Assembly: GCA_965217585.1 (NCBI GenBank)
Contig: OZ244561.1
Coordinates: 6,720,001-6,784,000, forward strand
Reading direction: 5' to 3'
Source: Candidatus Latescibacterota bacterium
Lineage (GTDB): Bacteria > Latescibacterota > UBA2968 > UBA8231
DNA: 64,000 nucleotides
Positions 3,606-22,355 of this stretch are shown piece by piece. The notes beneath the pieces are model-generated. The model made no database searches and was not told the DNA's origin. It saw only the letters and a list, made by a program, of their open reading frames with translations. Within the stretch, counting starts at the first letter, position 1, and each line of letters starts with the position of its first letter. The position numbers were made by a program, and so were the translations under genes.

Positions 3606-5134
3606 TGTCCGCTGAATACGCCACTCCAGGTACCGTGTACATCGTCGGGGCTGGTCCCGGCGACCCCGGTCTGCTGACCCTCAAGGGCCTGCGTTACCTG
3701 CGCGAGGCCGGCGTCGTCCTCTACGACGACCTCCTCGACAGCCGCTTGCTCGACCTAGTACCCAACACATGCGAGCAAATTGCGGTCGGCAAACGCGGTG
3801 GCCGCAAAAGCCCCTCCCAAGACGCGATCCATGCGCTCCTCGTCGATCGCGCCCGCCAAGGCCATGTCGTCGTCCGCCTCAAAGGCGGCGATCCGTTCAT
3901 CTTCGGCCGCGGCGGCGAAGAGGCCCTGCACCTGCGTCAGGCCGGCATCCCCTTTGAAATCGTCTCTGGCGTCTCTGCGGCCTCTGGCGTCTTGGCCTAC
4001 GCGGGCATCCCCCTGACTCATCGCGGCACGGCCTCGGCCGCGCTGCTAGTCACCGGCAACGAAGATCCGGCTAAGCCCGACGCGACCATCGACTGGGATC
4101 AACTAGCGGCCTTTGACGGCACCCTCGTCATCTTCATGGCCGTCCGCAAGCTCGCCAGTATATGCCAGCATCTCGTCGCTCGAGGTCGGCCGGCCTCGAC
4201 GCCGGCTGCAGCCATTGAATGGGGCACTTGGCCCGACCAGCGCACGGTCGTCGCCGATCTCCAACACCTGCCAGCCCGCGCCGTTGCCCAGCAAATCCGC
4301 TCGCCAGCCCTCATCGCAGTCGGCCCAGTCGTCGCGCTGCGCCAAGAGCTCAACTGGTTTGAGAGCAAGCCGCTCTTTGGCCGCCGCCTGCTCGTCACCC
4401 GCAGCCGCGAACAGGCCGGTCCCCTCCAGCAGCGCCTCGAAGCCGAAGGGGCGGCCGTATCGACGCTGCCCCTCCTGCACATCGGCCCACCCGACGACTG
4501 GACGGCTGTGGATGCGGCCCAAGACCGGCTCGGAAACGCTGCTTGGGTCGTCTTCACCAGCCCCAACAGCGTGTCCTTTTTCTGTGACCGGCTCTACCAG
4601 CGCGGCCTCGACGCCCGGGCCTTTGCCCACACGCGCATCGCGGCCGTCGGCTTGGCTACGGCCGCGGCGCTGCGCCAACAGGGCTTAGTTGCCGACCTCG
4701 TGCCCCCGAGCCAATCACAGGCTGCGCTAGCGAGGGCCTTTGCCGCATTCGATGTGGCCGGCCAAGAGATCCTCTTACCGGCCTCTTCCATTGGGCGCAC
4801 CGAACTCGCCGATACCCTCGAGGCACGCGGTGCCCAAGTTTATCACCTAACGACGTACGTAAATCGCCTGCCGGACCAGGTCGAGCTCCCCACTGCGCTG
4901 GCCGAGAACAAACTCGACCTCATCGTCTTTGCCAGCCCCTCCAGCGTCCACAATTTTCATCAGGTTCTAGGATCAGAACGCGCGGAGGCCGTATTGGCCC
5001 GCACCCACATCGCCTGCATTGGTCCCACCACGGCTGCAGCCGTGCGCCAACTGGGGTTTGCCGTTCACGTGCAGCCCCGCGAAAGCAGTATCCCCTCGCT
5101 CGTCCAAGCTATCATCGCCTTCTACGCCCCGTGA
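3605..5134 (+). CDS. cobA: Uroporphyrinogen-III C-methyltransferase / uroporphyrinogen-III synthase fusion (CobA-HemD)
   Basis: Start ATG 3605 overlaps the hemC stop; VGAGPGDPGLLTLKG, VVRLKGGDPFIFGRGGEE, then HemD part LFGRRLLVTR...FTSPNSV...FASPSSV...ACIGPTTA. Confidence 0.95.
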   Translation: MSAEYATPGTVYIVGAGPGDPGLLTLKGLRYLREAGVVLYDDLLDSRLLDLVPNTCEQIAVGKRGGRKSPSQDAIHALLVDRARQGHVVVRLKGGDPFIFGRGGEEALHLRQAGIPFEIVSGVSAASGVLAYAGIPLTHRGTASAALLVTGNEDPAKPDATIDWDQLAAFDGTLVIFMAVRKLASICQHLVARGRPASTPAAAIEWGTWPDQRTVVADLQHLPARAVAQQIRSPALIAVGPVVALRQELNWFESKPLFGRRLLVTRSREQAGPLQQRLEAEGAAVSTLPLLHIGPPDDWTAVDAAQDRLGNAAWVVFTSPNSVSFFCDRLYQRGLDARAFAHTRIAAVGLATAAALRQQGLVADLVPPSQSQAALARAFAAFDVAGQEILLPASSIGRTELADTLEARGAQVYHLTTYVNRLPDQVELPTALAENKLDLIVFASPSSVHNFHQVLGSERAEAVLARTHIACIGPTTAAAVRQLGFAVHVQPRESSIPSLVQAIIAFYAP

Positions 5135-6144
5135 AAACCTATCCAGCCGGCAAGCTGCCTCCCGCTGAATTAGGCCGTCTGCTCGCTGCCTATACCCACC
5201 GCCACGAACGCCTGCTCGTGCCGCCGACCGTAGGCGAGGACGCGGCGGTCATCGACTGCGGCGACCGCTTGCTAGTGGCCAAGACCGACCCCATCACCTT
5301 TGCCAGCGACGAGATTGGCTGGTACGCAGTCCACGTCAATGCCAACGACATTGCCGTCATGGGAGCGACGCCCCGCTTCTTTCTCAGCACCATCCTCCTC
5401 CCCGAAGAACGCGCCACGCCCGAGTTGGCGGAATCCATTTTCCGCTCCATCCACCAAGCCGCCGACAGCTTGGGCATCGCCGTCTGCGGCGGCCACACGG
5501 AGGTGACCTACGGACTCGACCGTCCCTTAGTCATCGGCCAGATGCTCGGGGAAACCACGCGCGACCGCTTGGTGCGCTCCTCGGGCTTGCGGCCCGGCCA
5601 CGCCCTGCTCCTGACCAAAGGCTTGGGCATTGAAGCCACCGCCATCATCGCCCGCGAAAAACGCGCGCAACTACGAGATCGCGGCTGTACGCCCACCTTT
5701 TTGGACGCCTGCGCCGACTTCCTCCACACGCCCGGCATCAGCGTCGTGCGCGATGCCCAAGTCGCCGTCCAAGCCGGACGAGTTACCGCCATGCACGATC
5801 CGACTGAAGGCGGAGTCGCCACGGGGCTGTGGGAATTGGCCACCGCATCTGCCGTAGGCGCAGAAATTGACTACCACGCATTGCCCATCGATTCAGCCAC
5901 AGCGCGCCTCTGCGCGGCCTTTGAACTCGATCCCCTCGGAGTGATTTCTTCGGGTGCGCTACTGATCGGCTGCACGACTAATTCCGCCGACGCTATACTC
6001 GCGGCCCTACACGACGCCAACATAGCCGCAGCCCACATCGGTACGGTCCGTCCACCTTCCTTTGGGCTTCAGCTACGCCGCGACGGCCACCTGACACCAT
6101 TGCCCACTTTCCCGGTGGACGAAATAGCGCCCCTCTTTGCCTAA
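5131..6144 (+). CDS. AIR synthase / HypE-like (PurM superfamily) protein
   Basis: GKLP, GEDAAV, KTDPITF, NANDIAVMGA, GGHTEV, MHDPTEGG, DPLGVISSGALL. Confidence 0.88.
   Translation: MKTYPAGKLPPAELGRLLAAYTHRHERLLVPPTVGEDAAVIDCGDRLLVAKTDPITFASDEIGWYAVHVNANDIAVMGATPRFFLSTILLPEERATPELAESIFRSIHQAADSLGIAVCGGHTEVTYGLDRPLVIGQMLGETTRDRLVRSSGLRPGHALLLTKGLGIEATAIIAREKRAQLRDRGCTPTFLDACADFLHTPGISVVRDAQVAVQAGRVTAMHDPTEGGVATGLWELATASAVGAEIDYHALPIDSATARLCAAFELDPLGVISSGALLIGCTTNSADAILAALHDANIAAAHIGTVRPPSFGLQLRRDGHLTPLPTFPVDEIAPLFA
6053..6144 (+). repeat. Direct repeat A, copy 1 (last 92 bp of the AIR-synthase-like gene)
   Basis: Aligns without gaps to 11739-11830, 10 mismatches in 92 bp. Confidence 0.9.
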
Positions 6145-6167: not shown

Positions 6168-6278
6168 GTGCGTATCGTCGTAGACACCAACCTGCCCGAT
6201 GGCACGATCAGGCACCATGCCTTCCATAGCTACACCATGAAGCAGGCGATCCAGGCGAAAATCGCTGGTGGGACTTGA
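6168..6278 (+). pseudogene. Chimeric remnant: PIN-toxin-like start fused to an internal type I restriction HsdR fragment
   Basis: Translates VRIVVDTN-LPDGTIRHHAFHSYTMKQAIQ-AKIAGGT*; xxVVDTN is a PIN N-terminus and FHSYTMKQAI is a conserved HsdR helicase-region motif. Confidence 0.6.
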
Positions 6279-6379
6279 AGATATCAGGCCCATCCCTTAG
6301 TTTGCCACCGCCTTCATTTTTGAATCACCTTTCAACTGCCCGCGACATCACTTCAACGATGTTCCCTCGGAGGGTTCCT

Positions 6380-9300
6380 TTGTCTGAAAAAATGCACGCG
6401 AAGGCATGGATTCAGCAGCAGTTACTCCATGACCTATGCACGACGTTCCCACCGCAGCCTGACCACGAGATCCACCGTGACCATCATCTCGAGACCTTCG
6501 AACGTGTGTTCGTTGGTCCTGTTGATCTGCTCGTACTTGAAGGAGATGAAGGTATCGGTAAGACAACACTCTTGTCGCAGTTCGCGAAGCGCTACCCAAA
6601 CCGAACAATCTCCTCATTTGTCACACCCATGCGGTACTACGGCTACGACACCAAGTCACTTTGGCGAGACTACTCAGCACAGATCCTGGCCATCGTGGAT
6701 CCTCGGGAATCGTTCTCATCTGAAGACGGGGGCGACGGCGTATTACAGAGTCTCATTCAAAAGCTCAAACAGCGGCATAGAAAGGACACCTATTACTTCC
6801 TACTAGATGGATTAACAGACATCGCCGACCCGATCATGAGAAGAGAAGTCGCCAGCCTTCTTCCTATTGGTCATGGTTTCCCAGTAATCGTCTCCGGTGA
6901 AGCGAGCCTACTCCCACCCGAGCTCAGGGATAGTCCACGGACAAAGACGACGCAGGCCGTCAACTTCTCTTTGGCAGAAGTCCAACAGTACTTTTCTGAT
7001 CTCGGGCTAAGTGACGCCAATATCAGGCAAATATACCAAGAATGTGGAAGGGGGGTCCCGGCCAATCTTGCAAGCGTCCGGCGTAGCTTGATTGCTGGCG
7101 TGGACTTCAATCACTTAAGTGGAAGGGGAATTAGAGATCTTTATGAACAGGAGTGGCGGAACGCTGTAACAGATGAACTCGCTGAGCAGATCGTCGCAAT
7201 CGTAGCACATTCGGGTCACCGATTAACCTTGCATTCCCTCTCTGATATCTTGGGAGTCGGGGATGACGTTGTCTCCGAGCGACTAGACCAGATTCCGTTC
7301 CTTCAACTTGATCCTGACGTCTCCTATGTTTCCTTCATCTCCCGATCGTTCGCGGATTTCGCGTCCGAAAAGCTGTCGGGGACTAAGGCCAACGTTATCG
7401 ACGTGCTTGTTGAACATTTAGAGAGGGGCACAGATGAGGGCCCGGAGGCTATTGACAGTCTTCCGGGTTACCTACAGGAGTCAGGACGGCTCGATAAGGT
7501 TATTTCCTTTCTCTCACCGGATTACTTCTCCAGCATGCTGAATAGAAGCGAATCGCTTATTCCGCTTCGAAGGCAACTCCAGATTGGCATCGACGCAGCA
7601 GCAGAACTTCGCCAGGACGGTGAGCTTGTGCGTTTCGGATTAGAGAGTAGCGCGATCAGGGAGATTGAAACTGCACAGGTTTCTCGCTTTGAGATCGAGG
7701 CGTTGGTAACGACTGACCAAGTGTCAGAGGCTCTCTCCTTCGCTGCCAACTGCTCACTACGGGAGGATCGGCTTCATTTGCTAGGGGTGATCGCTCGGTG
7801 TCAGAAAGAGCGAGGGACGCCCCCTAGCGAGGAGATTCTCGATCAGATCCGACAGCTCCACGGTCAGATTGATGCGAAGTCTCTTGGTGATAAAGCCATA
7901 GACATCGCAGCTGATCTCTTTCCGTGCTGTCCAGACCTAGCGGTTAGCTTGATCGAGCAAAGTTCTTGGGCGGACGGCGACGAAAACGAGTTGGACATCG
8001 CGTACGTTCGTCTTTCCATAGCGACGGCTGTACACGGGACAGTGCCGAGAAGTGATCAGGACGACCTTGAGACGATCCAAAAACGGATAAGAAATCCCAG
8101 GTTACGCGGTTTTACCTCTGCTCTGTCCGGGAAAGTCCAATCGGCGGCCGAGGTAATCGCCGAGGCAGAGAAGCTTGGGACAGCTTCTGATAAGTTGTAC
8201 ATCCTGAGGGAATGGGCTATAGAACATTCGACGAGAGAGGATGCGCTGGATGTGGCGGAGTACGGCCTTAGGACAGTTGTGGAGGCTACGGGATACGCTC
8301 CTAACGTGCGGGTTCTTCGAGAACTCTCATCCCCTTTGCTCCATGCCAAGGATCTCGCTAGGACACAGTCATTGGTAAGGGCCTTCGACGGACAGCGCAC
8401 GACCGTTGAGGACCAAGGACCAACGGAAGAAGTAGTCAGGCTCCAGTTGAACCTCGCGGTTGCGGAATCTCTTTTTGATGAGGAAGCGTGTGTGAACCGG
8501 CTGGTGGAAGTCTTTCTGAGCGTGCACGAGTTGGCAGATCTTTCGACCAAGTCAAGCTGTCTCGCAAGGCTATTATCTGCGCTACGAATTATTGACTCGT
8601 CTGGGCGAATCGAGGATAAGGAGCACCTAACGTCCCTCTCCACCGAAGAACTGGACACGGCGATATCCAACTTGTTGGCCCACACGGCCCAACAAGTCGA
8701 TGTCACCCGTAGGATCATCGACGCGCTAGGGGCCTTAGACGTCGGTCGCAGTATTGCCCTCGCAGAGAACCTGAATACAGCAAATCGTCGGGAGCAAGCT
8801 CTACTGTTGGCCGTAGACGCCATCCTGGAGAGCGATTCGGACCATATCGACCTGAAGCGTCTTAGGGAAGCGTGCAAAAACCTTCGAAAGCGCGAGTCTC
8901 TAGATCATGTTGCAGCAGCAGTAGCAGAGTACCTGGCACGGCGGGACTCAATTGACCAAGAAGCAATCGTAGAGTCTGGATTCCAGCTCTTCCAAGATCT
9001 TTTCTTCTCCGTTTCCGATCCGATGGAGCGATGTCGGGTGCTATGTCTGCTCTACGGCTTGGGAGAGCAAGGCCTATCGGCATCAGAGGCCATGCTTCTT
9101 GATCTGTTAAAACGGATCGAGGAAGCCATTACAGAGGTTGAGGCGGGGTGGGGCCGAATTGACGCAGGATTTCGAGTCGCTCGTTCCTTTGCTAACCGGA
9201 ACCCGACACAGGCGAAGAGGTATCTCGATGACGCCGAAGATGAGCGCAAAAGGACTGCGCTTTCCTCATTCTCTTCTGAGTGGACTTATCAAGCATGTTT

Positions 9301-11302
9301 GCGGTTGTCAATCCGCGCGTTCTCAGGTCAGCTCGGTCGTGGATATGATCCCGAGGACGATATGTCGAGACTAGGACGGTTAATAGACCAGCTCCCAAGC
9401 ACGTCTCTGCGAGTGCAGCTATGGGGTGAACTTGCTATGCACCTCTTTCTGCAACAGCATTCCGATGCCGGCAACCGTGTGGTGAGCGAGCGCGTCGTCC
9501 CGCTGATAGATTCCATGCCTAAGGGGCCGGCAAAAGAAAGCACTATCATAGGCGTTTCACCCGCGTTGTACCGAAATCACAAGACTACCGCCCTTCGGCT
9601 CTTCGAGGCCATAGAAGGCAATCAGCGGGATAGAGCACTCATGACCTGTGCTAAGTTTATACTGGAGCAACATATTCCCTCGGATCCATACGAGGAACAC
9701 GAAAACGGGTACGATATCATATACCAAGACGCCGTCGATGTAGTTGAACTGGCGAGCGAGCTTAGTCAGGACAATATGGTATATATACTGATCGTAGCGC
9801 TCGCTGATACTCTCTCATCATCTCAGTTTTCCATTACCAGGCAACAAGAAGCGGAGCTTGTTCGACGTATTGAGAACCTTGTCGCTGACAAGTTCCCCGA
9901 TCAAGACAACATCCAACATGACGGGTACGGAATCGCAAGCGAAGCGCAGTTATTGCGGATCGGGCGACATAAACGCCAATCTTGGCTTAACGTGATAAAA
10001 CGCGCACAGTCAATCCCGAATATGTCTGATCGAGCTTTTGTGTTGGCCATTATCGGCCAAGTCCTACCGGCTCGGGAGGGGACCCATCGGGAGCGCGTGT
10101 TCGAAGAGGCTATACATGTCACGGGAGCCATCCCTTGCACCTATGATCGACTTATGCGGTTAAACGATCTGGCCGGAATGATGGCACAGAAGTGTCCCCG
10201 TCTGGCACGGAAATGCCTCTCTGAGGCCGTCGGGAGATTTCAGTATGCTGAGGATGGCCCAAATGTCCGTGTCTTTAGGGATGTGATTGACACTGCCTTC
10301 AAATTCGACGCAGACTTCGCTGCGTCACTTGTTTCTCTTGGGGATGACGACCCTGCTCGGGCGATGGGCCGACACGAGATGAAACGTCGCCTAGAAATGC
10401 TGCGCGCAAAAAAAGCTATAATCGACGGACCGGAGTCATGGGACGAGTTCGGACCAGAAAACTCAGACTTTCCTCGCTCCACTTGGCTTGCCCTGGGATC
10501 ACTGAACGCTGGACGGGTGCATACGGCATCGGTAGATCAGCTCAGGCTGGCGCTTCGCGCCGCCGGACAGTTTGCGCTTCACGACGGATTTCCCATCCTA
10601 GCCTGGGTTATCGAAAACGCGGTACGCCGATTTTCCGGAACTTCTCAGTCACGGTCGATGATTCGTGTAATCTTCGAGGGTGCGATGCGTGCAACGGAGT
10701 TTGTGGAAATAGCGGGGGCAAGCGCTTCGGCCACAGTCCGGCGCGGAACCTTAGCGGAAAGTACCCCACCGAGCGAAGAAAGCATGGTGGTAAAGGTCGG
10801 TGAAAGAGACCGCGCAGTGGAGTTCTTGCGGCGGTGGTTGCAGCAAACGGAGTTGGAACGCCTCTATATCTGTGATCAGTACTTCGGCCCGGCGGAGCTT
10901 GCTCTTCTGATGTTAATTCAATCAGAGGTTCCAGATATAGAAGTGGTAGTCCTCACCAGTCGACATTGCCAGGAGCAGCGCCAGATAAAATCCCTGTATG
11001 AAGCCTATAGAACGGGCTGGCAGAAGATCTCTGATCAGAATCCGCCGAAAGCAGAAATCGTTGTCGTCGGATTGGAGGAATCAGGGAAATCGCCTATTCA
11101 TGACCGAAGCATTTTGACTGAGCAAAGTGGGATTAGCCTTGGGACCTCGTGGAACTCACTTGGCTTATCGCAGGATTCGGTCATTAGAGTGCTGTCCGAG
11201 AGGGAAGCGTCTGATCTGTTTGAACACGCTAGTCAGTTTCTCCTAGAGAGAAGGCGTGAGTATCGCGGAGAGCGATTACGCTACGAAACGGTAACACTGT
11301 AA
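6380..11302 (+). CDS. Large STAND-like P-loop ATPase with helical-repeat region and C-terminal PLD-like nuclease domain (putative defence protein)
   Basis: Walker A GDEGIGKT, Walker B YYFLLDG, over 1000 aa of Leu/Ala-rich helical sequence, C-terminal ICDQYF...IHDRSILTEQSGISLGTSWN; start placed at TTG 6380 behind GGAGG. Confidence 0.75.
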   Translation: MSEKMHAKAWIQQQLLHDLCTTFPPQPDHEIHRDHHLETFERVFVGPVDLLVLEGDEGIGKTTLLSQFAKRYPNRTISSFVTPMRYYGYDTKSLWRDYSAQILAIVDPRESFSSEDGGDGVLQSLIQKLKQRHRKDTYYFLLDGLTDIADPIMRREVASLLPIGHGFPVIVSGEASLLPPELRDSPRTKTTQAVNFSLAEVQQYFSDLGLSDANIRQIYQECGRGVPANLASVRRSLIAGVDFNHLSGRGIRDLYEQEWRNAVTDELAEQIVAIVAHSGHRLTLHSLSDILGVGDDVVSERLDQIPFLQLDPDVSYVSFISRSFADFASEKLSGTKANVIDVLVEHLERGTDEGPEAIDSLPGYLQESGRLDKVISFLSPDYFSSMLNRSESLIPLRRQLQIGIDAAAELRQDGELVRFGLESSAIREIETAQVSRFEIEALVTTDQVSEALSFAANCSLREDRLHLLGVIARCQKERGTPPSEEILDQIRQLHGQIDAKSLGDKAIDIAADLFPCCPDLAVSLIEQSSWADGDENELDIAYVRLSIATAVHGTVPRSDQDDLETIQKRIRNPRLRGFTSALSGKVQSAAEVIAEAEKLGTASDKLYILREWAIEHSTREDALDVAEYGLRTVVEATGYAPNVRVLRELSSPLLHAKDLARTQSLVRAFDGQRTTVEDQGPTEEVVRLQLNLAVAESLFDEEACVNRLVEVFLSVHELADLSTKSSCLARLLSALRIIDSSGRIEDKEHLTSLSTEELDTAISNLLAHTAQQVDVTRRIIDALGALDVGRSIALAENLNTANRREQALLLAVDAILESDSDHIDLKRLREACKNLRKRESLDHVAAAVAEYLARRDSIDQEAIVESGFQLFQDLFFSVSDPMERCRVLCLLYGLGEQGLSASEAMLLDLLKRIEEAITEVEAGWGRIDAGFRVARSFANRNPTQAKRYLDDAEDERKRTALSSFSSEWTYQACLRLSIRAFSGQLGRGYDPEDDMSRLGRLIDQLPSTSLRVQLWGELAMHLFLQQHSDAGNRVVSERVVPLIDSMPKGPAKESTIIGVSPALYRNHKTTALRLFEAIEGNQRDRALMTCAKFILEQHIPSDPYEEHENGYDIIYQDAVDVVELASELSQDNMVYILIVALADTLSSSQFSITRQQEAELVRRIENLVADKFPDQDNIQHDGYGIASEAQLLRIGRHKRQSWLNVIKRAQSIPNMSDRAFVLAIIGQVLPAREGTHRERVFEEAIHVTGAIPCTYDRLMRLNDLAGMMAQKCPRLARKCLSEAVGRFQYAEDGPNVRVFRDVIDTAFKFDADFAASLVSLGDDDPARAMGRHEMKRRLEMLRAKKAIIDGPESWDEFGPENSDFPRSTWLALGSLNAGRVHTASVDQLRLALRAAGQFALHDGFPILAWVIENAVRRFSGTSQSRSMIRVIFEGAMRATEFVEIAGASASATVRRGTLAESTPPSEESMVVKVGERDRAVEFLRRWLQQTELERLYICDQYFGPAELALLMLIQSEVPDIEVVVLTSRHCQEQRQIKSLYEAYRTGWQKISDQNPPKAEIVVVGLEESGKSPIHDRSILTEQSGISLGTSWNSLGLSQDSVIRVLSEREASDLFEHASQFLLERRREYRGERLRYETVTL

Positions 11303-15295: not shown

Positions 15296-15964
15296 ATGAT
15301 GATAAAATTCACTCTTTTACTTTTGACCTTATACTTGGGCACATCACCTGTTTTTGCACAGGAAACGCAAGCGGATTCTACGCGGAGTGAACGGCCGACA
15401 TTTTCGCTGACGCCTACCTGAGTGGGCTGACCTGGCGAAGGCGCACCACTCCGGGGGAGTGGTATTCATACGAAATTTGCACTTTCGGGGCGGTATGTAG
15501 ATACATCAATGGACCGTCCGCAATGGCGGTTTACCGCCAATTACCGCCTGCATCAACGCCTGCAAGTTGGGGTTGAGTTGAATCCAAAAGCAAAAGAGGC
15601 AGGACCTCTTGTGACCCTGTTTTTGCTAACCGAGACAGAGACGCGTCCGGCGCTTTTTTTGGGCACGAGCTCAGATCGAATTGGTTCGCCGGCGGGCGAG
15701 CAGTCTTACTTCGCGACTATAAGTAAATATATACCTCGGTGGCGCACTTCTTTTTACGGCAGTTTGAATTATTCGGAATGGGATGGGAAGTTCAATATTC
15801 CCTTTGGCGTGGGGGTTGAATTGGGCAAAGGCTTTTCATTGCGACCGATGTATGATGGCGATCGGGGGCATGTGATGCTGAATTATTTCGCCACGCAATA
15901 CGGTGTCAGTTTGATGTATGTGTGGCTTGAAACCATGGGTATTTCGTTTTCTCTTGGATTTTAG
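15296..15964 (+). CDS. Putative exported selenoprotein with UxxU motif and outer-membrane beta-barrel-like body
   Basis: ATG 15296 is in frame with ORF 15509-15964; signal peptide MMIKFTLLLLTLYLGTSPVFA-Q; TGA at 15419 and 15428 (T-U-V-G-U-P); SECIS-like hairpin 15445-15463; amphipathic strands and terminal Phe (GISFSLGF). Confidence 0.75.
15445..15463 (+). promoter_or_regulatory. Candidate bacterial SECIS element
   Basis: accactcc-ggg-ggagtggt, perfect 8-bp stem with G-rich loop, 22 nt after the second and 31 nt after the first UGA. Confidence 0.7.
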
Positions 15965-15976
15965 TGTGGAGGATCA

Positions 15977-16660
15977 ATGCGTTATTGTAATTTTTTATTT
16001 CTAATTGTTCTGGCAAGTTCGGCTACGCTTATAGCTGAAGCTCAGATTCCCGCTAAGGCACTTTGTAGTGTCTGTGCATTAAAGGGCGGCGAGACAGAGT
16101 TGGAAAAGGTCAAGGCCCATTCGGAACACGATGGCAAGGCGTACTATTTTTGTTCCGAAAACTGTAAAAAAGAATTCGACTCAGATCCCGTGGCTTATTT
16201 ACCACCGGTATTTCCACGACCTGCACCAGCCTGCGTCATTGAAATGCTGGAGGGCGGGGACAAGGCGTTGGGGGATTTGCAGGACAAAGTTGTGCTCGTA
16301 GATTTTTGGGCGACATGGTGCGAACCTTGTCTTGAGACAATGCCCCGGTTGCAAAAACTCTACAGCGCTTATTCCGCTAAGGGTTTTGACGTTTGGGGGG
16401 TGTCTATAGATGAGGACAAAGATCGGGTCGAGAAGATCAAAAAGATGGTGGACAAAATGGATATTTCTTATCCCATCTTTGTAGATACGAAACAGACGCC
16501 CGCTTGGTATCAGTTTAAGGTGAAAGCGATTCCTGCGATGTATCTTCTCGATGGAGAAAGTCAGATCGTAGCGCAGTGGACGGGAAAGATAGATTACGAG
16601 GAAGTGGAGAAGGAAGTCTTGCGACGGTTAGAAAAAAGGCTCAAAGTTGAAGGGCCATGA
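15977..16660 (+). CDS. Exported YHS-domain / TlpA-ResA-type thioredoxin fusion
   Basis: Signal peptide; CSVC...HDGKAYYFCSENCKKEFDSDP (YHS); VLVDFWATWCEPC...GVSID...AIP (TlpA); RBS GGAGG. Confidence 0.88.
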   Translation: MRYCNFLFLIVLASSATLIAEAQIPAKALCSVCALKGGETELEKVKAHSEHDGKAYYFCSENCKKEFDSDPVAYLPPVFPRPAPACVIEMLEGGDKALGDLQDKVVLVDFWATWCEPCLETMPRLQKLYSAYSAKGFDVWGVSIDEDKDRVEKIKKMVDKMDISYPIFVDTKQTPAWYQFKVKAIPAMYLLDGESQIVAQWTGKIDYEEVEKEVLRRLEKRLKVEGP

Positions 16661-17979: not shown

Positions 17980-18978
17980 ATGACACAAATAGTCTCTACT
18001 GTCGACTTTGACCGCGATGGCAAGCAAATCGGCTGGTTGCATGTGCCGCATTCGGTCACTCGCAGCGCCTACGGGGTACTGCCCATCCCCGTCGCCGTCA
18101 TTCGCAATGGCCCCGGGCCGCAGGTCCTGCTGACAGCCGGCAACCACGGCGACGAGTACGAGGGCCAGGTGGTCCTGACGCGCTTGATCCAGGAGGTGCA
18201 GCCCGAGCAAATCCGCGGCGGCCTTATCATCATACCGGCGCTGAATCAGCCAGCCGTGCTAGCGGCAGCGCGGGTCAGCCCGCTGGACGCAGGGAATCTG
18301 AACAGGGTCTTCCCGGGCGACCCCAGGGGCGGACCGACGTGGAAAATTGCGGACTATGTCGAACAGCATCTGCTGCCGCGGGTTGAAGTGGTGGCCGACT
18401 TCCACGGCGGCGGGGCCTCCCTGGACTACCGACCGCACGCCAGCACCCACTTCGGCCCCGACACGTCCTCTGAGCACAAGCGCCTAAGCCTAGATTTGGT
18501 TTCCAAGCTAGGTGTGCCGCACGTAATGGTTTTCGAGAACCGCACTGATAAGGGAGGGCTACCCGATGCCGCCATCCGGCAGGGCGTGATCTCGCTGGGC
18601 GGGGAATACGGCGGCACGGGTAGCGTATCGCGGTCCGGGGTAAAGCTGGTGCAACAGGCGGTTGACCGATTGCTGGCAGCCCTGGGGGTTAAGGGTACGC
18701 TGCCGGACGACCTCGAGACGCCTCAGGTCCTCCACATCTTCGGCCCCAACGCGTACGCTTATGCACCGGAACCAGGCCTGTTCGATCCGGCCACCGATCT
18801 GGGCGACGAGGTGAGTGCCGGCGATCTGTGCGGTCAGGTCCTGTTTCCGGAGAATCCTTCGCGGCCCCCCGTACCCGTCACTTTTCGCGGCGAGGGTACG
18901 GTGGTCTGCAAACGGCACCTGGGCAGGGTGGAAGCCGGAGACTGCGTCGCCCATCTGGCAGCCCCTGTAAGCGACTGA
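17980..18978 (+). CDS. Succinylglutamate desuccinylase / aspartoacylase family (DoeB/EutE-like deacylase)
   Basis: AGNHGDEYEG, NLNRVFPG, DFHGGG, EYGG, C-terminal lipoyl-like domain. Confidence 0.88.
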   Translation: MTQIVSTVDFDRDGKQIGWLHVPHSVTRSAYGVLPIPVAVIRNGPGPQVLLTAGNHGDEYEGQVVLTRLIQEVQPEQIRGGLIIIPALNQPAVLAAARVSPLDAGNLNRVFPGDPRGGPTWKIADYVEQHLLPRVEVVADFHGGGASLDYRPHASTHFGPDTSSEHKRLSLDLVSKLGVPHVMVFENRTDKGGLPDAAIRQGVISLGGEYGGTGSVSRSGVKLVQQAVDRLLAALGVKGTLPDDLETPQVLHIFGPNAYAYAPEPGLFDPATDLGDEVSAGDLCGQVLFPENPSRPPVPVTFRGEGTVVCKRHLGRVEAGDCVAHLAAPVSD

Positions 18979-20901: not shown

Positions 20902-21198
20902 CTACACTTTGGCCGGAAGAGGTTGGATAGTGATTTTGAAATCATGCCCCAAGATACCGAGGATATTGAAAAGTACATCGAAGCTAATTTTTCCGATCTT
21001 GGTCCTATTTTCAATCTGGGCAATGCGCGGTTGGGAGACGCCGACCATCTCGGCCAATTGGCCTTGCGTCAAGCCAAATCGCTTTCTACTCTTCACGATC
21101 TTTTCGATGAGCTGTTCTTTCTGGCGTAGTTCGTTAATATTGACGCCGAGTTCCTCTGCCCATTGCTCAATGTTTACCTTTTCCCAAGGCATTTTCAA
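20902..21198 (-). CDS. XRE-family HTH antitoxin (HigA-like)
   Basis: RKRFGLTQGQLAEMVGVSQPRIAQIE HTH, downstream of a RelE-like toxin. Confidence 0.85.
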   Translation of the reverse strand: MKMPWEKVNIEQWAEELGVNINELRQKEQLIEKIVKSRKRFGLTQGQLAEMVGVSQPRIAQIENRTKIGKISFDVLFNILGILGHDFKITIQPLPAKV

Positions 21199-21527
21199 AT
21201 CTCCTTCAGTCTTCTGAGAATCAGCCGTCTATCCTTATCGGGAATGGTTTCGGTCTTTTTTTGCAGCACATGAACCAGATAAATTGCATCCCCGCGCTTG
21301 ATGAAATAGAAAACTCGATAGATACTGCGCCGTTCTTTGAAGCGCAGTTCGTGTAAACCGAGAGCAATATTGAACAGCGGCTTGCTCAACGGCATCTCCA
21401 GGCTTTCCCCCTGCTTCAACCGATCAAGTGCCAAGAAGAAATCCTCCTGTAGGCTTTGAGATAATCCCTCGACAAATTTCTTGATCGGCGAATTGCCTGA
21501 AGCAGTGGTATAGTAGAGGATTTCCAT
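21195..21527 (-). CDS. RelE/ParE-superfamily toxin (HigB / Gp49-like)
   Basis: YYTTASGNSP, GLHELR, YRVFYF, LVHVLQKKTETIP. Confidence 0.88.
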   Translation of the reverse strand: MEILYYTTASGNSPIKKFVEGLSQSLQEDFFLALDRLKQGESLEMPLSKPLFNIALGLHELRFKERRSIYRVFYFIKRGDAIYLVHVLQKKTETIPDKDRRLILRRLKEI

Positions 21528-21720: not shown

Positions 21721-21963
21721 ATGGTTGTCGCCAAACTAACCTCCAAAGGACAACTGGTCATTCCCCAAGCCATACGCCAGCATCTGCACCTACAGCAGGG
21801 CGACAGCGTGGATTTTATCATCCAAGACGATGGCGAAGTGGTCGTCAGACCGGCCACCCGGGATGTGCGAGAACTAAAAAATATCCTGCCGCAACCCAAG
21901 AAGGCCGTATCGCTAGCGGAAATGGATCGCGCGGTGCGCGAGGGCGCGGCAAAAGCGCTGTGA
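21721..21963 (+). CDS. AbrB/MazE/SpoVT-family antitoxin
   Basis: AKLTSKGQLVIPQAIRQHLHLQQGD. Confidence 0.9.
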   Translation: MVVAKLTSKGQLVIPQAIRQHLHLQQGDSVDFIIQDDGEVVVRPATRDVRELKNILPQPKKAVSLAEMDRAVREGAAKAL

Positions 21964-22355
21964 GGGGGCTGGATACCAATGTGCTGGTGCGCTATCTGGT
22001 GCAGGACGATGCGGTCCAGGCGCGGCGCGCGGCAAAAGAGATCGAAGCGGGATCGGATGCGGGCGAGATCTATTTTATTGCCGACGTCGTCGTCTGCGAA
22101 CTGGTGTGGGTGCTCGATCGGGCCTATGGATACAGCCGGGCGCAGATTGGCGACGCGCTGGAGGGTATTTTGCAGACGCGCTCATTTCATTTTGTCGACA
22201 AAGACCTGCTCTGGCAGGGGCTAGGCGATTACAAAAAGGGCAGGGGCGACTTTGCCGATTATGCGATTGGGCGCGTGGGCGAAAAGTCCGGGTGCGAAAA
22301 AACGCTAAGTTTTGATCGCGCTTTAAAAGGCGATGTACGATTTGAAGTGCTTTAG
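21960..22355 (+). CDS. vapC: PIN-domain toxin VapC
   Basis: GLDTNVLVRYL, ELVWVL, DFADY, SFDR. Confidence 0.9.
   Translation: MRGLDTNVLVRYLVQDDAVQARRAAKEIEAGSDAGEIYFIADVVVCELVWVLDRAYGYSRAQIGDALEGILQTRSFHFVDKDLLWQGLGDYKKGRGDFADYAIGRVGEKSGCEKTLSFDRALKGDVRFEVL

Follow-up and report, generated by a model that had tools for sequence, protein, structure and literature searches.

A predicted outer-membrane beta-barrel protein with a very likely selenocysteine pair, a single candidate SECIS hairpin and a conserved YHS-TlpA partner gene in Candidatus Latescibacterota

The window analyzed here is a stretch of 64,000 nucleotides (nt) from a Candidatus Latescibacterota bacterium (assembly GCA_965217585.1, contig OZ244561.1, positions 6,720,001 to 6,784,000 of the forward strand). 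It holds a gene for a predicted exported beta-barrel protein in which two in-frame UGA codons are very likely decoded as selenocysteine (Sec, U), in the spacing of a CxxC motif. As judged from the sequences of its relatives, both UGAs, the reading frame upstream of them and one downstream hairpin are under selection, and SelB is inferred, with high confidence, to decode both UGAs from that single hairpin. The frame is continuous from ATG 15296 to TAG 15964, with TGA 15419 and TGA 15428 as its sole interruptions; residues 41 to 46 read T-U-V-G-U-P, the two Sec being U42 and U45. Open reading frame (ORF) calling with table 11 yields 15509-15964 alone. An earlier reading made from the letters of the window (the sequence-only reading) had extended this short frame to ATG 15296, adding a clean signal peptide, and had noted alternating strands, a terminal Phe and TGA as an ordinary stop elsewhere. 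It proposed a selenoprotein with a diselenide or metal-binding arm on an outer-membrane barrel, of an architecture that it did not recognize, with one selenocysteine insertion sequence (SECIS) serving two UGAs. The checks it named included CxxC-type homologs, a covarying hairpin, the Sec machinery and a structure prediction, and Trp at the two sites was among the findings that were to speak against it. The results given below support the selenoprotein barrel, with a qualification on the length of the hairpin. The signal peptide was assigned by eye and by hydropathy; the in-frame upstream leader is open and hydrophobic in 86 of 91 distinct homologs, as against 6 and 12 of the 91 for the other two frames. 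In the genome as a whole, TGA is used as stop more often than TAA or TAG, ending 1247 of 2655 long open frames.

Related loci were collected by tblastn from species genomes, from 168 genomes of the host's phylum and from the best 80 of 572 metagenome matches. The motif is covered in 127 of the 131 loci matched (three matches end at contig ends and one is frameshifted); these 127 loci amount to 84 distinct 72-nt segments, and some genomes occur in more than one search. The first codon is TGA in 126 loci and TAA in one (L107), the second is TGA in all 127, and TGG or TGY was found at neither site in any of them. The residues enclosed by the two UGAs vary (V, S, T or M, followed by G or A) and barrel identity among these relatives falls as low as 54%. 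The segment from the UGAs to ATG 15509 is among the best-conserved parts of the protein. The nearest named relatives are Candidatus Latescibacterota, others being labelled Calditrichia or Poribacteria, and a second phylum contributes three further distinct loci in which both codons are TGA. One copy (L010 / L057), probably a decaying allele, displays an in-frame TAG right after the signal peptide and two hairpin mismatches.

The hairpin at 15445-15463 consists of eight Watson-Crick pairs closed by a GGG loop (-11.7 kcal/mol) and lies 31 and 22 nt past the UGAs. The sequence-only reading had described a perfect 8-bp hairpin with a G-rich loop at these distances; the pairs, the loop and the spacing stand, while only 7 bp are conserved, the outer eighth pair being formed in 35 of the 84 segments. 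Considered alone, the host hairpin does not exceed chance expectation (four shuffled folds, z -1.3 to -1.6). A comparable hairpin occurs at 15 of the 3618 TGA-N6-TGA sites of the genome, and of those 15 only the present site lies in a frame that is open over long distances in both directions (43 codons upstream, 177 downstream). Across the alignment of the 84 segments, 80 of whose rows are distinct, pairing holds in 97.7% of the cells of the 7-bp stem, with 26 two-sided changes; neither value was reached by any of 500 shuffles, and slid controls pair at 31-68%. The Leu codon (CTC/CTT) covaries with the Gly codon (GGG/GGA) at a normalized mutual information of 0.89, the highest of 77 column pairs, the next being 0.36. 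Because relatedness inflates such counts, more weight is given to a control based on codon usage. The 91 genes encoding exactly P-L-R-G-S-G use only CTC/CTT for Leu, CGG/CGT for Arg and GGG/GGA for Gly, while every synonym is in use for the invariant Leu, Arg and Gly residues of the barrel. With Arg restricted in this way, the loop stays G-G-G or G-U-G, that is, the G[G/U] of the bacterial SECIS model. The published form of this model calls for a loop of 3-9 nt with G[G/U], a stem of 4-16 bp, a minimum free energy of -7.5 or lower and a distance of 16-37 nt from the UGA (PMC13188914), and the stem of 7-8 bp, the GGG loop, the energy and the two distances agree with it throughout. A search for a second covarying helix gave none. 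The sharing of one SECIS by UGAs 9 nt apart has been raised as a possibility for UxxU hydrogenases (PMC13582414). In another relative (runs X1 and X2), the contigs match the motif and hairpin only (window 15427-15468) and carry a compensatory pair change at 15451 and 15457.

The Sec machinery is present in the host genome: selA, selB and selD score above the cut-offs, and selC is represented by one tRNA-Sec-type gene with a UCA anticodon and a G discriminator. The selD gene bears an in-frame TGA of its own (G000:C1:1742938), with the Sec codon in C-G-G-U-A-S-K and a downstream hairpin unlike that of the barrel gene. One ordinary tRNA-Cys and one cysS were identified; neither a second selC-like tRNA-ReC nor a dedicated cysteinyl-tRNA synthetase was found in this 94.6%-complete genome, searched without a tRNA-ReC-specific model. 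In the host's class, SelA occurs in 31 of 32 carriers (the exception being a genome 81% complete). Since 124 of the 131 remaining genomes also have it, this distribution is compatible with the Sec reading but not discriminating.

The family comprises 610 close homologs at 90% clustering; among the top 120, 118 lack the motif and two have W calls. A phmmer search of representatives at 50% identity gave 175 matches, some of them full-length proteins that read P-T-C-A-G-C where the UxxU lies (29% identity over 186 residues, E 2e-28). The named Cys members belong to Armatimonadota and, in the family tree, group separately from the UxxU proteins. C-G-P-S-C-P-x-C occurs in two distant homologs, which also align at the CxxC (hhalign 96%, E 2.5e-9) and have no Pfam or NCBIfam match. 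One of them lies 2 nt behind a CusA/CzcA (CzcCBA-like) efflux operon with a His-rich adaptor; the other neighbors of these two homologs include YHS, rhodanese and porin genes and a cysteine desulfurase-like gene. A motif scan of the stored proteins retrieved 48 natural CxxC, 8 WxxW and 2 CxxW records, near-copies included. The WxxW records come from contigs under 1.7 kb, and members of the same 90% cluster on long contigs are annotated in truncated form. DNA loci with the N-terminal sequence of the WxxW clade (L105, L106) have TGA at both sites, and the WxxW records are therefore most likely gene calls made with TGA read as Trp. The family tree also contains a deeper clade of headless database proteins (P0153, P0145, P0172, P0330, P0336), whose starts suggest that they too are cut after the recoded motif.

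Two other ways of reading the UGAs have to be weighed against Sec. If they were true stops, the locus would give two products, a leader peptide of 41 residues and a headless barrel starting at ATG 15509, as the gene callers agree for the 118 database proteins mentioned above, and the TAA of L107 would be accounted for. Such a headless barrel would have neither the signal peptide nor strand one of the barrel, a further stop at a distance of 9 nt would not have been kept as TGA in 127 of 127 loci, the stretch leading to ATG 15509 would not be expected among the best-conserved parts, and the Cys homologs are continuous; this reading is extremely improbable. It is also very unlikely, if slightly less so, that one or both UGAs are read as Cys, by a SECIS-dependent tRNA-ReC, or as Trp. 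The single tRNA-Sec-type gene, tRNA-Cys and cysS found in the genome, the role of TGA as commonest stop, the lack of TGG and TGY in the 127 loci and the TGA codons and truncated annotations of the WxxW clade weigh more here than the reported enrichment of tRNA-ReC in genomes with UxxU hydrogenases (PMC13582414) or the ten database records with WxxW or CxxW. The reading of both UGAs as Sec draws together their conservation, the Cys homologs, the covarying hairpin and the machinery genes.

In the structure model, the body of the protein forms 12 strands with a predicted local distance difference test score (pLDDT) above 90 and the UxxU arm scores about 70. The barrel ends in a terminal Phe and BamA is present in the genome, that of a diderm host. 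On the strength of this model, the protein is almost certainly a barrel, with a predicted location in the outer membrane. Its conserved residues include Arg78, Glu94, Asp127, Arg128, Asp187 and His192. The best fold matches are FapF, the COG4313 channel and KdgM, at 8-16% identity, and no sequence match better than E 0.6 was obtained among PDB chains. A search of Pfam and NCBIfam (June 2026) returned no family over the cut-off for the protein and nothing relevant for 60 aligned members or for 50 members (best E 0.03).

The sequence-only reading had missed a conserved partner gene. Its product of 227 residues combines a leader with a YHS domain and a TlpA-like thioredoxin fold, and the gene adjoins the barrel gene in 102 of the 117 loci having at least 400 nt of room. 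It is the sole neighbor conserved beyond close kin, and the gene pair is evidently under selection as far as the compared sequences go. The active site is W-C-x-P-C in all 66 distinct relatives where the motif was found, and both Cys motifs of the YHS domain recur in the partner's relatives. Among the Cys-clade matches, 24 of 57 carry YHS domains joined to the N-terminus of the barrel. The module is an accessory cassette by its distribution and composition: a profile match was obtained in 8 of 30 same-genus genomes, some of these being broken copies, and its G+C content is 47-49%, compared with 58-67% in the flanks and 59.5% in the genome. One broken copy (L067, genome G136) is frameshifted with U-V-G-U still visible, and another (L162, genome G142) has a stop within the match and lies close to a transposase-like ORF. 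The module of L067 is placed directly between counterparts of the window genes 5131-6144 and 17980-18978; the window has therefore gained or kept extra genes on both sides. The coordinates of all features are collected in Table 1.

Table 1. Features of the barrel gene, its partner and the distant subfamily. Positions are those of the window unless a locus is named.
Feature	Position	Strand	Basis or remark
Full gene, 222 residues including two in-frame UGAs	15296..15964	+	Signal peptide, linker, UxxU arm, 12-stranded beta-barrel, last residue Phe
Likely Sec-pathway signal peptide, residues 1-21, end V-F-A	15296..15358	+	Sequence, hydropathy, leader in homologs
U-V-G-U motif (TGA 15419, TGA 15428)	15419..15430	+	Aligns with C-A-G-C and C-P-x-C of homologs
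Bacterial SECIS-type hairpin	15445..15463	+	7-bp kept stem 15446-15462, loop GGG 15453-15455
Predicted 12-stranded outer-membrane beta-barrel, residues 61-222	15476..15961	+	Structure prediction
Partner gene, likely exported YHS (TRASH-like) and TlpA-like thioredoxin fold	15977..16660	+	Starts 12 nt downstream of barrel gene
YHS domain of partner with C-S-V-C and C-S-E-N-C	16064..16207	+	PF04945 above cut-off
TlpA-type active site C-E-P-C of partner	16319..16330	+	Cys in relatives, never Sec
Distant three-Cys barrel subfamily	L164:3911-4561, L165:5711-6388		Metal-related neighborhoods

Elsewhere in the window, a 1675-residue ORF (6275-11302) with an N-terminal P-loop-like motif, a C-terminal nuclease-like tail and a G+C content below that of its flanks looks, by eye, like an inserted defence-type gene. 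Adjacent pairs of small genes at 20902-21527 and 21721-22355 are toxin-antitoxin-like by eye (RelE-like with helix-turn-helix; AbrB-like with PIN domain).

The mechanism proposed for the module can be briefly summarized as follows. SelB bound at the single hairpin would decode both UGAs, each being inside the 16-37 nt window of bacterial SECIS elements. After export, the C-terminal 162 residues are predicted to form the 12-stranded barrel, to be inserted by the beta-barrel assembly machinery, and the arm to fold into or over its lumen, likely plugging the pore. Reduction of the arm would fall to the TlpA domain in the periplasm, which a DsbD-type protein would recharge, and the selenolate pair and the four-Cys YHS domain would exchange a soft ion such as Cu(I). 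The selenolates may gate passage through the pore, export or detoxification being slightly favored as the direction. Elsewhere, TlpA reduces Cys pairs before copper loading (PMC6669012) and YHS is a probable copper sensor (PMC4626032). Handling of a soft metal such as copper is suggested by analogy and is given even weight for and against; the same balance holds for the mechanism as a whole, in which a selenocysteine arm plugs the pore and deals with the metal together with YHS-TlpA. The most complete statement, a widespread and systematically mis-annotated family of minimal, selenium-gated soft-metal channels in which YHS-TlpA opens and loads a diselenide/selenolate plug made with one covarying 7-bp SECIS, is put forward tentatively and falls somewhat short of an even chance. 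Several points weigh against metal gating: no transporter or regulator gene travels with the UxxU form, the link to an efflux operon depends on a single distant locus, and TlpA may not readily reduce a UxxU diselenide.

A purely redox role is also possible, although doubtful. The UxxU pair would then act as a diselenide/selenol switch relaying electrons from TlpA to acceptors in the outer membrane or outside (disulfides, peroxides, sulfur or selenium species), or gating a pore for organic solutes, with YHS merely structural or sensing. The WCxPC reductase of the constant partner points in this direction, as do the rhodanese near one distant homolog and the cysteine desulfurase-like gene beside the other, the fold matches to peptide or organic-solute channels (FapF, COG4313, KdgM) and the conserved Arg, Glu, Asp and His residues, which could bind an anion; catalogued selenoproteins are, moreover, mostly redox proteins (PMC13188914). 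The Cys clade, however, fuses YHS and not TlpA to the barrel, and a heavy-metal efflux operon includes one of the distant homologs. It is improbable that the diselenide is simply structural, locking the plug or aiding folding, with TlpA acting in biogenesis and expression depending on the selenium supply. Cys would serve a structural bond equally, the fact that both Sec codons are kept at identities of 53-95% and in several phyla points to a chemical role, and YHS is left unexplained. Such a role would nonetheless suit the great stability that UxxU diselenides can have, and two UGAs under one hairpin should cut the yield at low selenium. The broken copies (L010, L067, L162) and the profile matches in 8 of 30 same-genus genomes imply that the module is dispensable, which is also in line with a structural bond.

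The present analysis adds a very probable selenoprotein family of new architecture, with two Sec on an outer-membrane barrel, that occurs in several phyla and whose members are held in databases as headless hypothetical proteins or Trp mis-calls. If the proposed mechanism is true, selenium chemistry would be extended to outer-membrane gating, and the two genes would constitute a previously undescribed envelope system that handles metal or redox equivalents. With its short, strongly covarying stem and both UGAs in the SelB window, the hairpin provides a ready reporter for double UGA decoding, and a way to ask whether a single bacterial SECIS can serve UGAs spaced by 9 nt.

Known UxxU selenoprotein families share with the present one two Sec in CxxC spacing, Cys homologs, in-frame UGAs and a downstream hairpin; none is a membrane beta-barrel, and their models give no match here. 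Assignment to SelenoL or a Prx-like UxxU oxidoreductase was rejected, the model being an all-beta barrel and the UxxU protein having no match to a thioredoxin-fold profile. The catalogued selenoprotein families (NF041115, NF049945, NF041027, NF041384 and others) were tried as well, and none scores over its curated cut-off. The large subunits of UxxU Group 4 [NiFeSe] hydrogenases likewise have two UGAs 9 nt apart, a proposed shared SECIS and a metal-ligand motif, but their fold is unrelated and they often occur with tRNA-ReC, none of which was found in the host genome (PMC13582414). Sec in a predicted outer-membrane barrel has precedents in the FCYXU-type TonB-dependent receptor (NF049945) and the GSU2204 / MtrB-PioB-like protein (NF041027) (PMC13188914, PMC12013277). 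Those proteins differ in having one Sec each, and their models do not match the barrel gene. Their barrels are also larger. Table 1 of a 2026 catalogue of 119 families lists three UxxU and two outer-membrane entries, and a barrel with two Sec is not among its architectures (PMC13188914). No description of the family was found in the literature, including the accessible text of PMC9312934, PMC12013277 and PMC13326102. The family and its combination of features appear to be undescribed, though each ingredient has precedent.

FapF (5O65) and the COG4313 channel (4RL8) are 12-stranded plugged channels and, like the KdgM/NanC porins, are 8-16% identical to the barrel; for the first two the fold match is strong, without a profile or PDB sequence match. 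None of these proteins is known to carry a CxxC arm. The CxxC-barrel and YHS-CxxC-barrel proteins of Armatimonadota (e.g. MCA0361030.1, 'YHS domain-containing protein') are true homologs, with Cys for Sec, a separate clade and YHS fused instead of adjacent; no description of their function was found in the literature. The TlpA of Bradyrhizobium, acting with ScoI/CoxB, is likewise a periplasmic WCxPC thioredoxin and keeps a Cys pair reduced for copper uptake (PMC6669012); here TlpA is fused to YHS, and its target would be a Sec pair on an outer-membrane barrel. Membership in the PcoB family, which is marked by its own profile, a His/Met-rich N-terminus and a pcoA neighbor, was set aside, as there is no Pfam match, the arm is UxxU and the only conserved neighbor is YHS-TlpA. 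As a small outer-membrane barrel whose flexible N-terminal region likely provides metal ligands and matters for copper resistance, the copper efflux protein PcoB (7PGE) is nevertheless the best working analogy (PMC12509749).
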